Positions 17,574-49,420 of a stretch of 64,000 nt of DNA are shown here, piece after piece. This DNA is from Bacteroidales bacterium. Lineage in GTDB: Bacteria > Bacteroidota > Bacteroidia > Bacteroidales > UBA1715. Each line of letters begins with the position of its first letter. Within the stretch, counting starts at the first letter, position 1. The stretch lies in NCBI GenBank assembly GCA_046482735.1, contig JAWOEL010000080.1:2124-66123 (forward strand). The letters are read 5' to 3'. A program made the position numbers and the translations under genes. Below the pieces are notes generated by a model, which saw nothing but the letters and a program-made list of their open reading frames with translations, was not told the DNA's origin and did not search any database.

Positions 17574-20500
17574 TTACCAACTAAATGTATTTTCTGAATT
17601 TAGATACAAATAATATCCTTTACCTGGTAACACTTCGTCTAATGTTCCTGTATTATCATTTGCATCATAAAATTCATTAAAATCTTTAAGAATAATCACA
17701 TCATTAATTAAAGGATATAACGTATTCTCTATACTTCCTGATGTACTGTCCGATTGTGGATGGCTGAACATATTCCATCCTGCTTGTAAAGAAATACTTC
17801 CACTTTCAACTTGTGTGCCGGAAATAATTAAATCAGATGCAGTATTCATTTTTACAAGATATGCCTTACCAAGTTCAAATGTTTGTAAACTTTGAAGACT
17901 TAAAGCTTGTCCGGGTTTATAGAACCCATCTGCATTTTTAATTAAATCTACATTATTCATAATGTCTGCAAATAAAGTATCTATAGAGGCATTAATGGGT
18001 TCTAGTTGAATTGAAATTAAATTCCATCCTGTCTGCAATGGTATCGTTTGACTTATTACATCACTTGTTACAATTACATCTATTTGAGCTTGTGGTGATT
18101 CACAGCCGCTAAGAGTTTGTGTGACAAAATATGATGTTGTGTCCTCACTTGTTGTTGAAGGTTCCGGTGCTGTCGGGTTACCGGTTCCGGTAGGAGAAGT
18201 ATACCATAATAATGAACTCCCGGTAATGTTTTCAGCGGTAAGTTGTGTTGCCGTTTCTCCTACAGTATATTTAACAGGAGATGAAACTATCGGTGCATTC
18301 AGATATTCTGTTGATGTTATTGATTCTGTATTAAAATCTGAACTATTTCCCGCAGCATCTTTAGCCCGAACTTTTATTGCATACTCAGTGTTACAATCTA
18401 ACCCCGAAACAGTTGTGCTTGTTGAAGTACCAGATACTGTTTCGTATAACGTGCCGTCGAGATACACTTCATATTCTGTAACTTCAACATTGTCTGTTGA
18501 TGCCCCCCAACTTACGCTAAAAGAATCCAAGGTGATATCACTAAATGATATTGTTCCGGGAGTTGTTGGTGCCTGGGTGTCTCCACAATCTGCATTGGGA
18601 TCGATAATACCAAGTACGGGTGTTCTGCCGCATGTAGAGCCTGCAGATATCTGCCAGTCGTAAAAATAAAGATAATAGTTGCTATTTGAGGTGGTTCCCT
18701 GATATGCACCGGTTAACGTTACAATACCAGACGGACTTGATTCATATGGATAGGATGCACCGCTATTATGAAAACTGAGAGAACCATTAAAATCCACAGA
18801 TGAAAGGCGTATACGAAGGTTTTCGCCCCAAGCTTTTTCTACTGTGAAATTGCCAAAAGAGAATTCAACTAATGAACCAGCCATGCCTGTTTCAATATTA
18901 ATAGGGTCTGATGTGAATGTTTTTGCCGGCGAAAAAGCATTTCCATTACCATCAAGAATTTCTACGGTCACTGTTCCTGAACCGTCACCATAAACACTAC
19001 CTACAAACAGCTTCATTGAATGTACCGTAAAATCTGAGCCGACGGTAAATGCCATGTGTAAATCATCACTAACCCCCCAATCATTGGTTGAGCTGCCTAC
19101 AGTGGTAGATGCACCTGCAGTACCATCAAAAGAACTGGCATCCTGTACGTAAAAAGTTGTAGATTCTGAAATTGTTGTTGAATAAGTTGTTTCTGTTTCT
19201 AATGGTGTGCCACCTGTTTGAGAATCGTACCACTCATAAGTACCCGGAGTTGAAACAGCAAGGTTAACAGTTCCTGCTTCGCAAATTGTGTCGTGTTGAA
19301 CTTCAGGTAATAATGAGGTAATTATTATATCATCAGTTTTGTCTGTACATCCCGCAGCACTTACCGTTACCGAATATGTTCCAGCATTATATGCAGTATA
19401 TGTTTGTGCTGTGGCATCAGGAATAACTGAGCCGTCTATCGACCATGCGTAATTAATACCCGTGCCGGAAACTCCTGCATCAAGTGTTTTTGTTGTTTCT
19501 TCGCAAAGTTCAGCATCGGCTCCTAAATCAACAGTTGGTAGTTCGGCAGAAACGACAATATCGTCAGATGTGGTCCATGCACCTGATGTTTCTGCTATTT
19601 CACAGGTGTAGGTGTCAGCTTCTGTTACCGTAACACTTGTGAGATTTGCACCTTCATTAAATGGTGTCGAAGATGAACCTTTGTACCATTTATAGGTAAT
19701 AGATTCTCCTGATTGCAGACTACTTAAATCAGTAGTTGCAGTGATAGTAGCTTCACCTGTTCCGCATAATGTAAGTTCATCGCCTAATTCCGGTGTTGGA
19801 TGACCAAATTGGTTTATATCTACCGGGTTGTCCATTGATATAATATATCCTAAAGCCGCAACTAATCCCGCATTATAATCAATACCCCCTTCAGAAGTTT
19901 CATAATTACCGATATCTTCTGTGAAGTTAGGGTCGCGGGAACCACCAATCATATATCCGTGTTGAGCATTTCGTGTTGGAATAACCAAAGTGTCCTGTTC
20001 TGCCATAATATTATCAGATAAAAAAACATTTCTATGGTGTGGATGTTGAGCTGAGTTGCAAGAACCACATCCTTCCCGGTTAAACCCAACAACAAAAGAA
20101 AAATTGGCAGTGTTGCTTCCTAAAATATAATCTACTTGGTCGTAAATAAATTTATCAACTATTGTATCGTTATTATATTTTTGCCATAACCCAACAATAA
20201 AAGCAGCATTAGCGTTGTAACGTAATGGCCCCCATGTTCCATCACCACCAGTGTATAAATCATTACTGCCGACGTCAGCTTTATACATTAATGCAAATTC
20301 TTCAAATAATGTTTCTCCGTATGAATCTCCTAATAGTGCTAAGTTGTATGCCGCAACATCATCGTTATTGTTATAACAGTATGTATAATTGTGGTTATCG
20401 ATATTTCTATTATCAGAAGGCCCTCTTGTATCTAAAGCTTCATTTTTATAATCTTCATTACCAGTAGCCCAATACAATTCGGCACATGCACTTATATAAT

Positions 20501-21374
20501 CATCTTCCCAACGTGCGTTTGCAGGGTAAAACGAGCTAGCAGCAACGGTTCCACCCTGGTTAGACTTTGCATATTGATATGCATATTCAGCATGTGTTAA
20601 ACAGGTTGCAGCGTATGCCGGGTCGAATGGTTCATACACACGAGCCATTAAAGCAAGTGTTGCTGCACAGTTAGATGGCATGGATGCATCGGTGGGGTTT
20701 TTAACAAAATCACGTGAACCATCTGCTTGTCCGCCTTCAGATTTTGGTAATGTTGCCATAGCAACAGATGTTACCCAATTTTTATGGTCGGCAGCACCAT
20801 TTCCTACTTGAGAGTAAAATGTTGTGGGGTTTGGGGCACATTGTATAAGAAAATCTGTTTGATATTTAAGCTCATCAAGAATGTCGGGAATACCATTGGG
20901 TTCTCCTTTTCCACCTTCCCAGCTGAAATCATCCGAAGATTGATACCCGGTATAGTCAAAAGAATAAAAATCGTCGAAGCCTTCCGGAAATTCGGCATAT
21001 GCTTTTAATAATGTATATGCCGCATAAAAGTATGTTTGGCCGAATTTTACATGATCACCGCAATCAACCCATCCGCCTTCGAGACTGTGGGCACCATCGG
21101 CGTCGTCTGTAAAACATTTGCCGGGTTGGAGTTTGCTTACATCTGCACCCTTTGAAGATTCCAACAAACTCATATCTTCCGAATTTGGGGTGTGATCCAT
21201 TATTAACCAATTGGGGCCATCGCCCGAACGTTGCCCGCCATACATACGTGTTGTCATCCACAATGCTTTTGTGTAGTCTCCATTTGTTAAATCTTGTGCT
21301 ATAACAAAGGTGTTAACATTGCAACATAATAAGAAAATACCTAAGATTTTTGTAAATGTTTTCATGCGATTCAA
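17574..21374 (-). CDS. secreted multidomain glycoside hydrolase family 9 (endoglucanase-like) with Ig-like repeats, an unassigned beta-sandwich region, FN3 and a duplicated C-terminal module
   Basis: Signal peptide, then GH9 signatures GGWVDCGDHVKFG (coded at 21039-21077), AQHPHHRN and YETSEGGIDYNAG. Downstream are Ig-like modules ending in Cys-containing strands (YTCEIAETSG, YSVTVSAAGC) and an FN3 domain (FSVSWGASTDNVEVTEYEVYLDG...YAIKVRAKDAAGNSS). The C-terminal duplicated motifs are LQTGWNLISIQ and LQAGWNMFSHP. Confidence 0.85.
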   Translation of the reverse strand: MNRMKTFTKILGIFLLCCNVNTFVIAQDLTNGDYTKALWMTTRMYGGQRSGDGPNWLIMDHTPNSEDMSLLESSKGADVSKLQPGKCFTDDADGAHSLEGGWVDCGDHVKFGQTYFYAAYTLLKAYAEFPEGFDDFYSFDYTGYQSSDDFSWEGGKGEPNGIPDILDELKYQTDFLIQCAPNPTTFYSQVGNGAADHKNWVTSVAMATLPKSEGGQADGSRDFVKNPTDASMPSNCAATLALMARVYEPFDPAYAATCLTHAEYAYQYAKSNQGGTVAASSFYPANARWEDDYISACAELYWATGNEDYKNEALDTRGPSDNRNIDNHNYTYCYNNNDDVAAYNLALLGDSYGETLFEEFALMYKADVGSNDLYTGGDGTWGPLRYNANAAFIVGLWQKYNNDTIVDKFIYDQVDYILGSNTANFSFVVGFNREGCGSCNSAQHPHHRNVFLSDNIMAEQDTLVIPTRNAQHGYMIGGSRDPNFTEDIGNYETSEGGIDYNAGLVAALGYIISMDNPVDINQFGHPTPELGDELTLCGTGEATITATTDLSSLQSGESITYKWYKGSSSTPFNEGANLTSVTVTEADTYTCEIAETSGAWTTSDDIVVSAELPTVDLGADAELCEETTKTLDAGVSGTGINYAWSIDGSVIPDATAQTYTAYNAGTYSVTVSAAGCTDKTDDIIITSLLPEVQHDTICEAGTVNLAVSTPGTYEWYDSQTGGTPLETETTYSTTISESTTFYVQDASSFDGTAGASTTVGSSTNDWGVSDDLHMAFTVGSDFTVHSMKLFVGSVYGDGSGTVTVEILDGNGNAFSPAKTFTSDPINIETGMAGSLVEFSFGNFTVEKAWGENLRIRLSSVDFNGSLSFHNSGASYPYESSPSGIVTLTGAYQGTTSNSNYYLYFYDWQISAGSTCGRTPVLGIIDPNADCGDTQAPTTPGTISFSDITLDSFSVSWGASTDNVEVTEYEVYLDGTLYETVSGTSTSTTVSGLDCNTEYAIKVRAKDAAGNSSDFNTESITSTEYLNAPIVSSPVKYTVGETATQLTAENITGSSLLWYTSPTGTGNPTAPEPSTTSEDTTSYFVTQTLSGCESPQAQIDVIVTSDVISQTIPLQTGWNLISIQLEPINASIDTLFADIMNNVDLIKNADGFYKPGQALSLQSLQTFELGKAYLVKMNTASDLIISGTQVESGSISLQAGWNMFSHPQSDSTSGSIENTLYPLINDVIILKDFNEFYDANDNTGTLDEVLPGKGYYLYLNSENTFSW

Positions 21375-47645: not shown

Positions 47646-47656
47646 ATATATCATCA

Positions 47657-47704
47657 ACCCCCGTCAGTGGTTGCAAACCCTGACGGTGGTGTTTACAAAA
47701 CACC
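47657..47704. repeat. ~45-nt hairpin element, solitary copy (related to the hairpin inside each tandem unit at 48950-48990 and 49167-49207)
   Basis: ACCCCCGTCAGtggttgcaaaccCTGACGGTGGT has arms CCGTCAG at 47661-47667 and CTGACGG at 47680-47686. It is followed by a second small hairpin, GGTGTTTacaAAACACC, and a T-run. It sits between the convergent 3' ends of two genes. Confidence 0.75.
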
Positions 47705-47714
47705 GTATGTTTTT

Positions 47715-48533
47715 TTATTTTTTTCTGAAACGCACACATTCAAAATGTGTATTATTTGTTTGGTCGAAACGGTTTAGGTCGCATAGCATATTTTCTTCGA
47801 AGTCTTCTTCATCGTAATGTTTACAGATTGTACATAAACCAGGTATTGGAATTAAATCAGTATTGATTGGCTTGCCATTGTCATCAAAAAGTCCTCCGTT
47901 CGAAAATATGTGTTCGGTTTCATTTCGAGAAGCAATTTTATCTATTTTGAATTCATCCTCAAAAAAATCATCCCGGTTATGTAACCATTCTTCAATTTCA
48001 CTTTTTGAGAGAAGCATATGTTCAATAGATTTATCTAATAAATCATGGAAGTCGGTATATTTCTTATCTTCGGCTTCTTTTCTGAAGTCTTCACAATTTG
48101 TGCAATACCCCGGAAAAGGACAATGAGCATCATCATAATCGCAAAATTCAATATGGACATAACCAACAGATACAGCAACATGGCTTTCCGCCCATAGTTT
48201 GTAGATAAAGGGATATCGAAGATGAGTCGGGTACATTTCCGGAAAATCTAAACAGAAATGATAATACTGTAGTAAATTTTCTAATTCTGTTGCCAACAGA
48301 GTTTGTTGCTCTTGATTTAATTTTTTCGGAGGAGGAAGTTGAACGTGTTCAATGCCGGTTATTTTTTCTATAGACTCTTCTTCACCATGAACATATTTTT
48401 CAATATTTAAGATGTTCAATTCAACTTCGTTATCCGGTTTTTGGGGTAAATCTTTCCAAACCTCATGAGTCGGTTTTAAATTCCACGTAGCGTTCCGAAT
48501 ATCATCAATTAAATGTTCAATGTAGTGTTGCAT
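47715..48533 (-). CDS. hypothetical acidic Cys-rich protein
   Basis: The ORF is 291 aa from 48590, or 272 aa from the MQHYIEHL Met at 48533. A minus-strand -7 box TATCTTTG (plus coordinates 48578-48585) favours the latter. There are two Cys clusters, CDYDDAHCPFPGYCTNC and CTICKHY...C...C. I recognise no family. Confidence 0.55.
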   Translation of the reverse strand: MQHYIEHLIDDIRNATWNLKPTHEVWKDLPQKPDNEVELNILNIEKYVHGEEESIEKITGIEHVQLPPPKKLNQEQQTLLATELENLLQYYHFCLDFPEMYPTHLRYPFIYKLWAESHVAVSVGYVHIEFCDYDDAHCPFPGYCTNCEDFRKEAEDKKYTDFHDLLDKSIEHMLLSKSEIEEWLHNRDDFFEDEFKIDKIASRNETEHIFSNGGLFDDNGKPINTDLIPIPGLCTICKHYDEEDFEENMLCDLNRFDQTNNTHFECVRFRKK

Positions 48534-48741
48534 AATCGAATGTTTTATTGTATGGTGTTCATTTTGTTGTATATAAGCAAAGATATACAATTTGAAAAAA
48601 TGGCAATGAAAATTTTTATTTTTGTGTTTTTACTGTTTTATGCTGATTAGTAAGAGTGTATTCAAACGGTTGTTGTTATGTATGGTGATAAGATATTTTT
48701 TTTGATTTACAGATAGATAAAAACCCAAGCAACACTTTATC

Positions 48742-48903
48742 GGGACAATTCCATTTTGGTACGATTAAAAGGTTTTAAAAGAGGGGGGATTGAAATCAAC
48801 AATCGGAAATTTCAATTCCATTCTGGTACGATTAAAAGTACTTAATTTAATGTAAATATTGAACAGTTTGTAGATTTCAATTCCATTCTGGTACGATTAA
48901 AAG
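48742..48903 (-). CRISPR. mini-CRISPR array: 3 repeats of 30 nt (two identical, one degenerate) and 2 spacers (37 and 35 nt); no cas genes in the window
   Basis: ATTTCAATTCCATTCTGGTACGATTAAAAG occurs at 48809-48838 and 48874-48903. A degenerate copy, GGGACAATTCCATTTTGGTACGATTAAAAG, lies at 48742-48771. The two spacers are unrelated in sequence. Read on the minus strand the repeat ends in ATTGAAAT, resembling the ATTGAAA(C/G) 3' end of Cas6-processed type I-B/III repeats, and the degenerate copy becomes the last repeat. The minus orientation is inferred from these two points. Confidence 0.6.
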
Positions 48904-49340
48904 TGTGGTAAGGGCAGTGCATTTTATCGTTAATTTTGGTGCACCCTCGTCAAACCCCGTCAGTGGTGCAAACCCTGACGGTGGTTACGTAAAAAAAAGA
49001 AAATGTACGTAATCTATTATAAAAAAACAGACAGTCGACATTAGAACAGACAGCGTTTCGTCGAAGAAAAACATATAGTATTACTATCACCCTCAACAGA
49101 GGCTTCGACCACTGTTGAGGTGTGGCACGGGCAGTGCATTTTATTAGTAATTTTGGTGCACCCTCGTCAAACCCCATCAGTGGTTGTAAACCCTGACGGT
49201 GGTTACGAAAAAAAAAGAAAATGTACGTAATCTATTATAAAAAAACGGATAGTCGACATTAGAACAGACAGCGTTTTATCGAAAAAGAGAAACATATTAC
49301 TATCACCATCAACAGGGTCTTCGACCACTGTTGATGTGTG
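48904..49340. repeat. tandem direct repeat: two units of 217 and 216 nt plus the first 5 nt of a third, each with three conserved hairpins
   Basis: Unit 1 spans 48904-49120 and unit 2 spans 49121-49336, both starting TGTGG, followed by TGTGG again at 49337. By eye the units are roughly nine-tenths identical, with small indels. The hairpins are CCGTCAG/CTGACGG, TTACGTA/TACGTAA, and CCTCAACAG/CTGTTGAGG (CATCAACAG/CTGTTGATG in unit 2). Confidence 0.85.
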
Positions 49341-49348
49341 GGGGGGAG

Positions 49349-49384
49349 AAAAAAAAGACCCGACAGGAGTGAACCTGCCGAGCC
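49349..49384 (-). terminator. rho-independent terminator of ftsZ / the dcw operon
   Basis: The minus strand reads GGCTCGGCAGG-ttcact-CCTGTCGGGTC-TTTTTTTT. This is an 11-bp stem (with G-U pairs) and a U8 tract, about 40 nt after the ftsZ stop. Confidence 0.75.
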
Positions 49385-49420
49385 TTAATTTACGCATATC
49401 CGCACTATAATTCGTTTATG

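Follow-up and report, generated by a model that had tools for sequence, protein, structure and literature searches.

The region examined here lies in a 64,000-nt stretch of DNA from a Bacteroidales bacterium (assembly GCA_046482735.1, contig JAWOEL010000080.1, positions 2,124 to 66,123), referred to throughout as the window. Between FtsZ on one side and a convergent calcineurin-like phosphoesterase (Metallophos) on the other, a compact islet carries a gene for a cysteine-rich protein, a short CRISPR array and two tandem units. The original prediction had put these parts forward as an autonomous RNA-guided or RNA-scaffolded module, with an eroded CRISPR locus beside an unrelated gene as its null hypothesis. 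Every element that it listed, namely the open reading frame (ORF), repeats, tandem units, hairpins and terminators, was found in the sequence. We consider it likely that the islet is the remnant of a type I-B CRISPR-Cas locus at a variable site downstream of ftsZ.

Layout of the islet downstream of ftsZ

Read on the minus strand from ftsZ, the islet starts with the intrinsic ftsZ terminator (49355-49386), a strong one with a 13-bp stem and a T-run that is kept in the closest relative. The end of a further unit, ~10 nt long (49338-49348), then precedes tandem unit 2, the copy nearer ftsZ (49121-49337), which is followed by tandem unit 1 (48904-49120), whose end is the exact start of CRISPR repeat 1. 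The array consists of repeat 1 (48874-48903), the 35-nt spacer A (48839-48873), repeat 2 (48809-48838), the 37-nt spacer B (48772-48808) and a terminal repeat (48742-48771). A 208-nt AT-rich stretch (48534-48741), made up of the trailer and the promoter region of the ORF, has nothing similar in other loci. Within it lies a TAnnTTTG box (TATCTTTG, 48578-48585), read from the sequence, which we take to be a Bacteroidetes-type -7 box from the promoter consensus. The ORF itself (47715-48533, minus strand) encodes an acidic protein of 272 aa, and 25 nt past its stop lies a solitary palindrome (47651-47697). On the plus strand, a terminator-like hairpin with a T-run (47686-47706) belongs to the convergent metallophosphoesterase gene. 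A foreign origin by composition was rejected, the GC content of the islet (0.30-0.40) being that of its surroundings.

The repeats are of a type I-B family

The three 30-nt repeats recur at a spacing of 65 and 67 nt. Repeats 1 and 2 have the same sequence (CTTTTAATCGTACCAGAATGGAATTGAAAT on the minus strand), of which the window holds two exact matches against none in 100 shuffles, and the terminal copy is 81% identical to it. Rfam CRISPR-DR2 matches both intact repeats end to end with E = 0.018, below the gathering score. In related Bacteroidales, the family repeat CT..AATCGnACCAnnnTGGAATTGAAAy forms arrays of 6-117 repeats beside cas4-cas1-cas2, and the family core AATCGnACCAnnnTGGAATTGAAA is common to the window repeat and to arrays adjacent to cas2 in 17 related loci, with few positions differing. 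Close variants of the repeat stand beside cas4-cas1-cas2 in two loci (CTTTTAATCGAACCATAGTGGAATTGAAAT in L032 and CTCATAATCGTACCAAGCTGGAATTGAAAC in L012). The cas-linked arrays have a period of 64-68 nt, as in the window, and without exception share the reading direction of the cas genes. A metagenome scan with the 26-nt core of the window's intact repeats returned 16 loci with up to 86 copies, including one arranged as cas4-cas1-cas2-leader-array (L082) and one as cas1-cas2-array (L078). Judged by their sequence, the three repeats are a genuine type I-B CRISPR array stub.

The common minus-strand orientation that had been claimed for the parts of the islet holds, in that cas-linked arrays read CT...ATTGAAAy toward the cas genes and the degenerate repeat of the window is distal in this direction. 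This terminal repeat, the copy nearest the ORF, carries one internal change and has its last four bases altered (GAAAT -> GTCCC); we read the degeneration of its 3' end as the usual decay of a last repeat.

A repeat that differs from that of the window in its first two bases only was also seen together with a canonical leader in L077 (4860-5040) and L080 (1660-1815), directly after a prolyl-tRNA synthetase-like gene. The genes of the contig looked non-Bacteroidales to us; if they are, members of this I-B repeat and leader family would seem to travel across distant taxa.

A search of IMG/VR for exact matches returned none for either spacer, and the two are not shared with other arrays. Their best matches within the window, the ORF promoter region included, are no better than those of shuffled spacers. 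Mini-arrays can give rise to CRISPR-derived RNAs that act as regulators of the CreA/CreR type, and the array of the islet could be one of these, with a spacer guiding Cascade to repress the adjacent gene. The array is indeed very short, and a CRISPR-linked gene follows 208 nt downstream on the same strand, with its promoter next to the array. However, neither spacer matches the ORF promoter region or the rest of the window better than its shuffled versions do, two of the three repeats are perfect and not degenerate, spacer length is normal and Cascade genes are absent nearby; we regard such a regulatory role as highly improbable. Spacer B further holds ATTTCAATCC...TTTTAAAAC, which resembles a repeat copy that was inverted and lost an internal segment (17 nt, with 88% complementarity to the edge of the repeat) and may be a recombination scar.

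Neither leader nor cas genes accompany the array

Arrays of this family that are linked to cas genes have a conserved leader of 217-226 nt. No match to it was found at 48904-49420 using an nhmmer profile of 15 leaders, blastn was also negative, and no cas genes were found in the window by tblastn with 21 Cas proteins. The possibility that the tandem units are a duplicated canonical leader was rejected, as neither nhmmer nor blastn showed any homology between them.

The array could still be a live orphan that a I-B system encoded at another place in the genome employs in trans, with the 217-nt unit serving as a non-canonical leader. Consistent with this, repeats 1 and 2 do not differ from each other and have their 26-nt core in common with arrays elsewhere that look active. 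The unit meets the repeat exactly at the first base of the repeat, as at a real leader-repeat junction, and its length of 217 nt compares with the 217-226 nt of the canonical leader. GTCGA/TCGAC motifs are enriched in the units (48904-49337, 434 nt; 7 against 0.33 expected) and are also present in canonical leaders, at 2-4 copies each. The clean junction, the unit length and the motif enrichment thus keep a substitute leader under consideration. Nevertheless, the units lack homology to the canonical leader profile, whereas nearly identical repeats with the same 26-nt core have a canonical leader in L077, L080 and L082, and in the closest relative the same units precede cas6 and not an array. 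No sigma-70-type promoter-like site was found in the units by a scan that is blind to Bacteroidetes-type promoters, the strong ftsZ terminator lies upstream, and the array has two spacers only. A live array with a substitute leader therefore appears unlikely to us.

The closest relative has a complete I-B operon at the same site

The closest relative by FtsZ (80% identical) is found on contig Ga0534205_000386. Here, ftsZ is followed by a terminator as in the window, then by four full and two partial copies of the tandem unit (about 4.5 copies in sum; 68-74% identity to the window by blastn; nhmmer E = 1e-56 to 1e-62) and then by a complete I-B operon consisting of cas6, a cas8-sized gene of 577 aa, cas7, cas5b, cas3, cas4, a gene resembling a REP-associated tyrosine transposase (RAYT; REP, repetitive extragenic palindrome) and cas1. 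The cas7 product matches TIGR02590 (Cas7/Csh2) above the cut-off. In two genomes with 71% FtsZ identity, unrelated genes follow ftsZ. Together, the operon in the relative and the unrelated genes at 71% identity indicate that the site downstream of ftsZ is variable and, in this lineage, was once home to a I-B locus. The position of the units before the cas operon further indicates that the units are older than the loss of the cas genes and independent of both the mini-array and the ORF.

Among the genes seen after ftsZ in more distant relatives are those for KilA-N, ParE toxin and M78 peptidase proteins (L086, 8474-12100) and for a MauE/DoxX protein (L085, 8529-9473). Such varied cargo would agree with a hot spot of integration or variability where the dcw cluster ends.

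The tandem units contain REP-like palindromes

The two ~217-nt units are ~90% identical, although not reported by Tandem Repeats Finder at the settings used, and are composed of two palindromes (H1 and H4) and AT-rich filler (nhmmer E = 1e-57 for unit 2). They had been predicted to be structured units providing the non-coding RNA (ncRNA) of the proposed module. There are indeed two units, and unit 1 folds better than its own shuffles (z = -3.7), but only two palindromes are kept between both genomes, H1 (CCTCAACAGTGG-TCGAAG-CC.CTGTTGAGG) and H4 (CCACCGTCAGGGTTTACAACCACTGACGGGG); the other predicted stems of unit 1 are not kept in the relative. Across six units, none of 40 consensus pairs showed a compensatory change, and no Rfam family matched the units at gathering or E-value thresholds, so that a known ncRNA was rejected. 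A role as the RNA of a module is also not supported by the closest relative, in which the units precede a normal I-B cas operon and have neither the ORF nor a mini-array beside them.

H1 reads CCTCAACAGTGG TCGAAG CCTCTGTTGAGG in unit 1 (49091-49120) and lies near 49307-49336 in unit 2; it is kept in the units of the relative. H4 is located at 48947-48986 in unit 1 (CCACCGTCAGGGTTTGCACCACTGACGGGG) and at 49164-49203 in unit 2, where one G-C -> G-T change leaves pairing on the minus strand only. The solitary palindrome beyond the ORF is a third copy of H4 (47651-47690; nhmmer E = 5.7e-10) in the same orientation as in the units, in agreement with the earlier observation of a matching hairpin at both ends of the islet. 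High copy number is a defining trait of REPs, whereas the 64 kb contain three copies of H4 only, all of them inside the islet. H4 reads CCA-C-CGTC-AGGG...CTGACGG, with a stem-foot CGTC tag and a CCA-like tail, as described for one REP superfamily (PMC3733652). REPs in general are short, G+C-rich palindromes whose stem foot bears a conserved tetranucleotide, either GTAG or CGTC (PMC3733652).

The fetched I-B loci abound in C[CT]GTCAG...CTGAC[AG]G palindromes, for which we roughly estimate a chance expectation of well under one per megabase. They sit before, after or in frame within the RAYT-like gene, and related palindromes were found in or beside RAYT-like genes in L008, L012, L019, L024, L025, L032, L034, L059 and L087. 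The RAYT-like gene matches NF047646 with E = 5e-11 and a score of 42.7, below the cut-off of 80; no such gene is present in the window. The palindromes of the units appear to accompany the RAYT-like gene found in these I-B loci. The units as a whole are absent from the other fetched loci, save for two weak palindrome-level matches in L024 and L017. We read the units as lineage-specific DNA palindrome clusters resembling REPs or bacterial interspersed mosaic elements (BIMEs), and not as a guide scaffold.

The RAYT-like (IS200/Y1-type) gene is itself frequent in these I-B loci and contains REP-like palindromes in frame, e.g. ...SNADRSIDAVRF... Such in-frame palindromes are seen in the L087 gene at 19951-20616 (palindromes at 20174 and 20230) and also in L019, L032, L034 and L059. 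The palindrome sequence within RAYT-like genes recurs in the tandem units upstream of cas6.

The cysteine-rich protein belongs to a CRISPR-linked family

The genomic context of the ORF family was analysed in 54 species-representative loci of the subfamily close to the window protein, with cas genes detected by tblastn using I-B references. In 15 of these, the homologue lies on the same strand 1-577 nt before cas4, within 135 nt in 14 cases, and another 10 loci have other cas genes or repeats of the family within 10 kb. Seven loci have only recurrent partner genes (a pair of unannotated genes of 460 and 350 aa, or the RAYT-like gene), 18 are without a CRISPR feature within 10 kb and four have too little flank. 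Given the subfamily sample and the I-B references, this linkage is a lower bound for the subfamily of the window protein. In L008, L010 and L012, the homologue is placed between the effector genes and cas4-cas1-cas2. L064, L024 and L026 resemble the window in having an array or a lone repeat on the upstream side of the ORF module; in L013 and L017, a lone repeat is found immediately downstream of the module. The ORF family is therefore a CRISPR-linked accessory gene family, found recurrently on the same strand beside cas genes or arrays. A distant member, P0036, was seen on short contigs only. No relative of the ORF was found in the viral contigs of IMG/VR, and it had no PHROG match; an anti-CRISPR of phage origin was accordingly rejected.

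These counts bear on both sides of the original prediction, which had suggested a search for co-occurrence of the ORF with repeats. The association is borne out by the 15 loci with the gene directly before cas4 and the 10 with cas genes or repeats nearby. The null hypothesis was right in that the locus is eroded, but wrong in taking the gene to be unrelated, as the gene family shows a strong linkage to arrays built from this family of repeats. It is nevertheless nearer the truth than the module that was proposed as the main hypothesis.

That proposal, in which the array, a structured tandem RNA and the Cys-rich protein would constitute a new minimal RNA-guided or RNA-scaffolded system, can draw on the adjacency and single orientation of the parts, the co-occurrence of the protein family with these repeats and the failure of the protein to match a known fold. 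The repeats, however, are ordinary type I-B repeats, and in the 15 loci the gene for the protein stands among the others of a complete Cascade/Cas3/Cas4-1-2 operon and replaces none of them, while about 18 loci carry the ORF with no CRISPR feature within 10 kb. The units, for their part, occur without the ORF or a mini-array in the relative, are nearly absent from the other fetched loci and show neither covariation nor an Rfam match, and no nuclease or RNA-binding signature was found in the protein. We consider a new minimal system to be very unlikely, and continue to favour the remnant of a type I-B locus.

Two unannotated genes recur with the ORF family, either inside I-B loci or alone. The first, p460, encodes ~460-497 aa and has an acidic linker of D/E-F repeats; the second, p350, encodes a 350-aa coiled-coil protein. 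Neither matches Pfam or NCBIfam, and p350 matches phrog_29668, of unknown function, with E = 5e-30. The partner genes are found in L010 (5518-7956), L001 (5165-7713), L004 (6540-7934 and 8860-9912), L014, L029 and L053. A relationship between the ORF and p460, its frequent partner, was rejected at an hhalign probability of 1.9%.

Three further loci are of note for the surroundings of the homologue. In L013, a 17-copy array of a different, 36-nt repeat (GTTGTGGTTTGATGTAAAATGATAAAGACTTTCAAC; 15-1134) lies upstream of it, and a lone degenerate I-B repeat (2255-2290) downstream; the GTTG...CAAC ends of the 36-nt repeat resemble those of type VI-B repeats. Two Prolixibacteraceae loci, L024 (8320-8349) and L026 (9387-9416), each have a single I-B repeat, a shared conserved trailer, a p460 gene, which is decayed in L026, and the ORF homologue, and both keep cas6 and RAYT-like remnants upstream. 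They look like independent cases of the same erosion.

Sequence and predicted structure of the protein

The ORF had been given as 272-291 aa with two cysteine clusters. Both clusters and the acidity (pI 4.78) stand, but the 291-aa reading does not. All homologues begin with M-x-x-Y-I at the ATG at 48533, and the TAnnTTTG box lies inside the 291-aa reading from TTG; for these two reasons the 272-aa start was chosen. The protein comprises a conserved N-domain of ~155 residues (1-155), an acidic linker and a C-terminal CxxC..C..C domain. The N-domain ends in cluster 1 (C-x6-C-x5-C-x2-C at C131/C138/C144/C147), in which three of the four cysteines show little or no variation among 71 diverse members, and cluster 2 (C-x2-C-x13-C-x14-C) is at the C-terminus. 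The N-domain is found alone, duplicated or fused to other unannotated domains, and the C-terminal domain of the window protein also occurs on other proteins.

A single-sequence search returned 28 homologues, a profile search 270, and a full HMMER scan put the family at no fewer than 769 clusters at 50% identity; every name supplied for homologues was 'hypothetical' or 'uncharacterized protein'. The ORF had no match in Pfam, NCBIfam/TIGRFAM or PADLOC even at E <= 1, and none in PHROG. Searching the 71 family members against curated models gave four unrelated single-member Pfam matches (E 0.003-0.008), which were treated as noise, and profile searches against PDB sequences gave a marginal match to PSTK only (E = 0.023). 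Profile searches likewise found no nuclease or RNA-binding signature in the ORF. The possibility of a Cas3'' HD nuclease was rejected since the ORF has no HD motif and the neighbouring Cas3 proteins already have weak HD matches. The N-domain was modelled from the 71-sequence alignment with a predicted local distance difference test (pLDDT) score of 90.3 and a predicted template modelling (pTM) score of 0.82, whereas the full-length model was poor outside residues 50-125. Foldseek found no match to the N-domain model in PDB or BFVD, with best E-values of 2.5 and 0.5 and TM-scores <= 0.35.

Four cysteines within 17 residues resemble the spacing of iron-sulphur (Fe-S) cluster loops. In addition, 23 of 150 family representatives end in ...PF, usually after an acidic tail (DELPF, GELPF, DTLPF); these include P0037, P0039, P0042, P0051, P0097, P0101, P0106 and others, all outside the window. 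About a quarter of the short family members have an acidic tail with ...[DE]LPF, a tip that the window protein lacks and that resembles the C-terminal tip of bacterial single-stranded DNA-binding protein (SSB). Our best guess, inferred from these sequence features, is that the protein may be a metal-binding (Fe-S or zinc) accessory factor on the adaptation side of I-B systems. A broader and rather speculative reading would be that of an adaptation accessory with a new fold and a metal cluster, acting with Cas4-Cas1-Cas2 and perhaps with the RAYT-like enzyme and the palindromes, the SSB-like tails of the short members tying acquisition to repair proteins of the host with affinity for the SSB tail; it could then have been retained in the window, along with a residual array, because it is still useful. 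This combination of roles seems doubtful to us.

A probable eroded type I-B locus

The history that we favour for the islet would start from the order ftsZ, terminator, REP-like tandem cluster, cas operon, leader, array and Cys-rich gene, which was probably the ancestral one. The losses from this layout would comprise the cas operon along with the canonical leader and the greater part of the array. What would have been kept are two palindrome units, the trailer end of the array with its two intact repeats, two spacers and degenerate last repeat, the solitary palindrome and the intact Cys-rich gene with its own putative promoter. The normal place of the Cys-rich family is in the I-B operon directly before cas4-cas1-cas2, or on the trailer side of such arrays. 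The array stub lacks both a canonical leader and a promoter and follows a strong terminator; most likely it is silent, save where another I-B system in the genome makes use of it.

Three points weigh against this history. Firstly, unit 1 and repeat 1 meet in a junction that is clean on either side, which random deletion would seldom produce. Secondly, no ORF homologue was found in the readable part of the locus on Ga0534205_000386 (array and beyond excluded), and the order of array then ORF in the direct ancestor is consequently inferred from L024, L026 and L064. Thirdly, the search for cas genes covered the 64-kb window, and a working I-B system may exist elsewhere in the genome.

On balance, we see the islet itself as a case of routine CRISPR-Cas decay at a variable chromosomal site that needs no new biology. 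What makes it interesting is the CRISPR-linked protein family, which has no annotation, together with the palindromes and RAYT-like genes that I-B loci carry as cargo. In half of the species sampled, the protein family is found within or next to a type I-B locus, usually directly before cas4. Should the protein act in acquiring spacers or in controlling that process, one of the commonest CRISPR subtypes would gain a further component. The recurring REP-like palindromes with the RAYT-like gene bear on how I-B loci rearrange. A cultured host carrying a family member is Mangrovibacterium marinum DSM 28823 (locus L023).

Comparison with known systems

The closest comparison is with type I-B loci themselves (Cas8b, Cas7/Csh2, Cas5b, Cas6, Cas3, Cas4-Cas1-Cas2). 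The islet shares with them the repeat family, the 30-nt repeat, spacers of ~36 nt, the direction of transcription and a 3'-degenerate terminal repeat, and a full operon occupies the same site in the relative. It differs in having no cas genes, no canonical leader and three repeats only. CreTA/CreR regulators resemble the islet in that a very short repeat-spacer-repeat lies next to a CRISPR-linked gene; in contrast to these, no complementarity between spacer and promoter was found in the islet, and its repeats are intact.

Bona fide repeats without adjacent cas genes are also known from the CRISPR2 locus of Enterococcus faecalis, a cas-less orphan array (PMC4580645, PMC5491264), and as in that case use in trans would be possible in principle. 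Unlike CRISPR2, the window has a two-spacer stub without a leader, along with a surviving accessory gene and palindrome clusters.

Compared with CGTC-tagged REPs (PMC3733652), the palindromes of the window are alike in their size of ~30-40 nt, the CGTC at the stem foot and the CCA-like tail. They also resemble REP/BIME elements in their tandem clustering, their intergenic place beside terminators and the presence, in related loci, of a RAYT-like gene that scores below the NF047646 cut-off. However, CGTC REPs have loops of 4-5 nt (PMC3733652), whereas H4 has a 7-nt loop and a bulged stem, and in place of the simple REP/BIME dimers the window has 217-nt composite units, with no RAYT-like gene in the window.

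Finally, the ORF family can be set beside the CRISPR-linked genes that have been derived from gene neighbourhoods (Shmakov et al. 2018 preprint, 10.1101/270033; Altae-Tran et al. 2023, PMC10910872), being likewise non-core, patchy and enriched by cas genes or arrays. A search of these two sources by terms did not turn up any Cys-rich family of I-B systems or Bacteroidetes, and the family is probably undescribed. A figure legend in Altae-Tran et al. 2023 names a Y1 transposase among CRISPR-associated genes (PMC10910872), and this entry, as given in the legend, fits the RAYT-like gene of these I-B loci.

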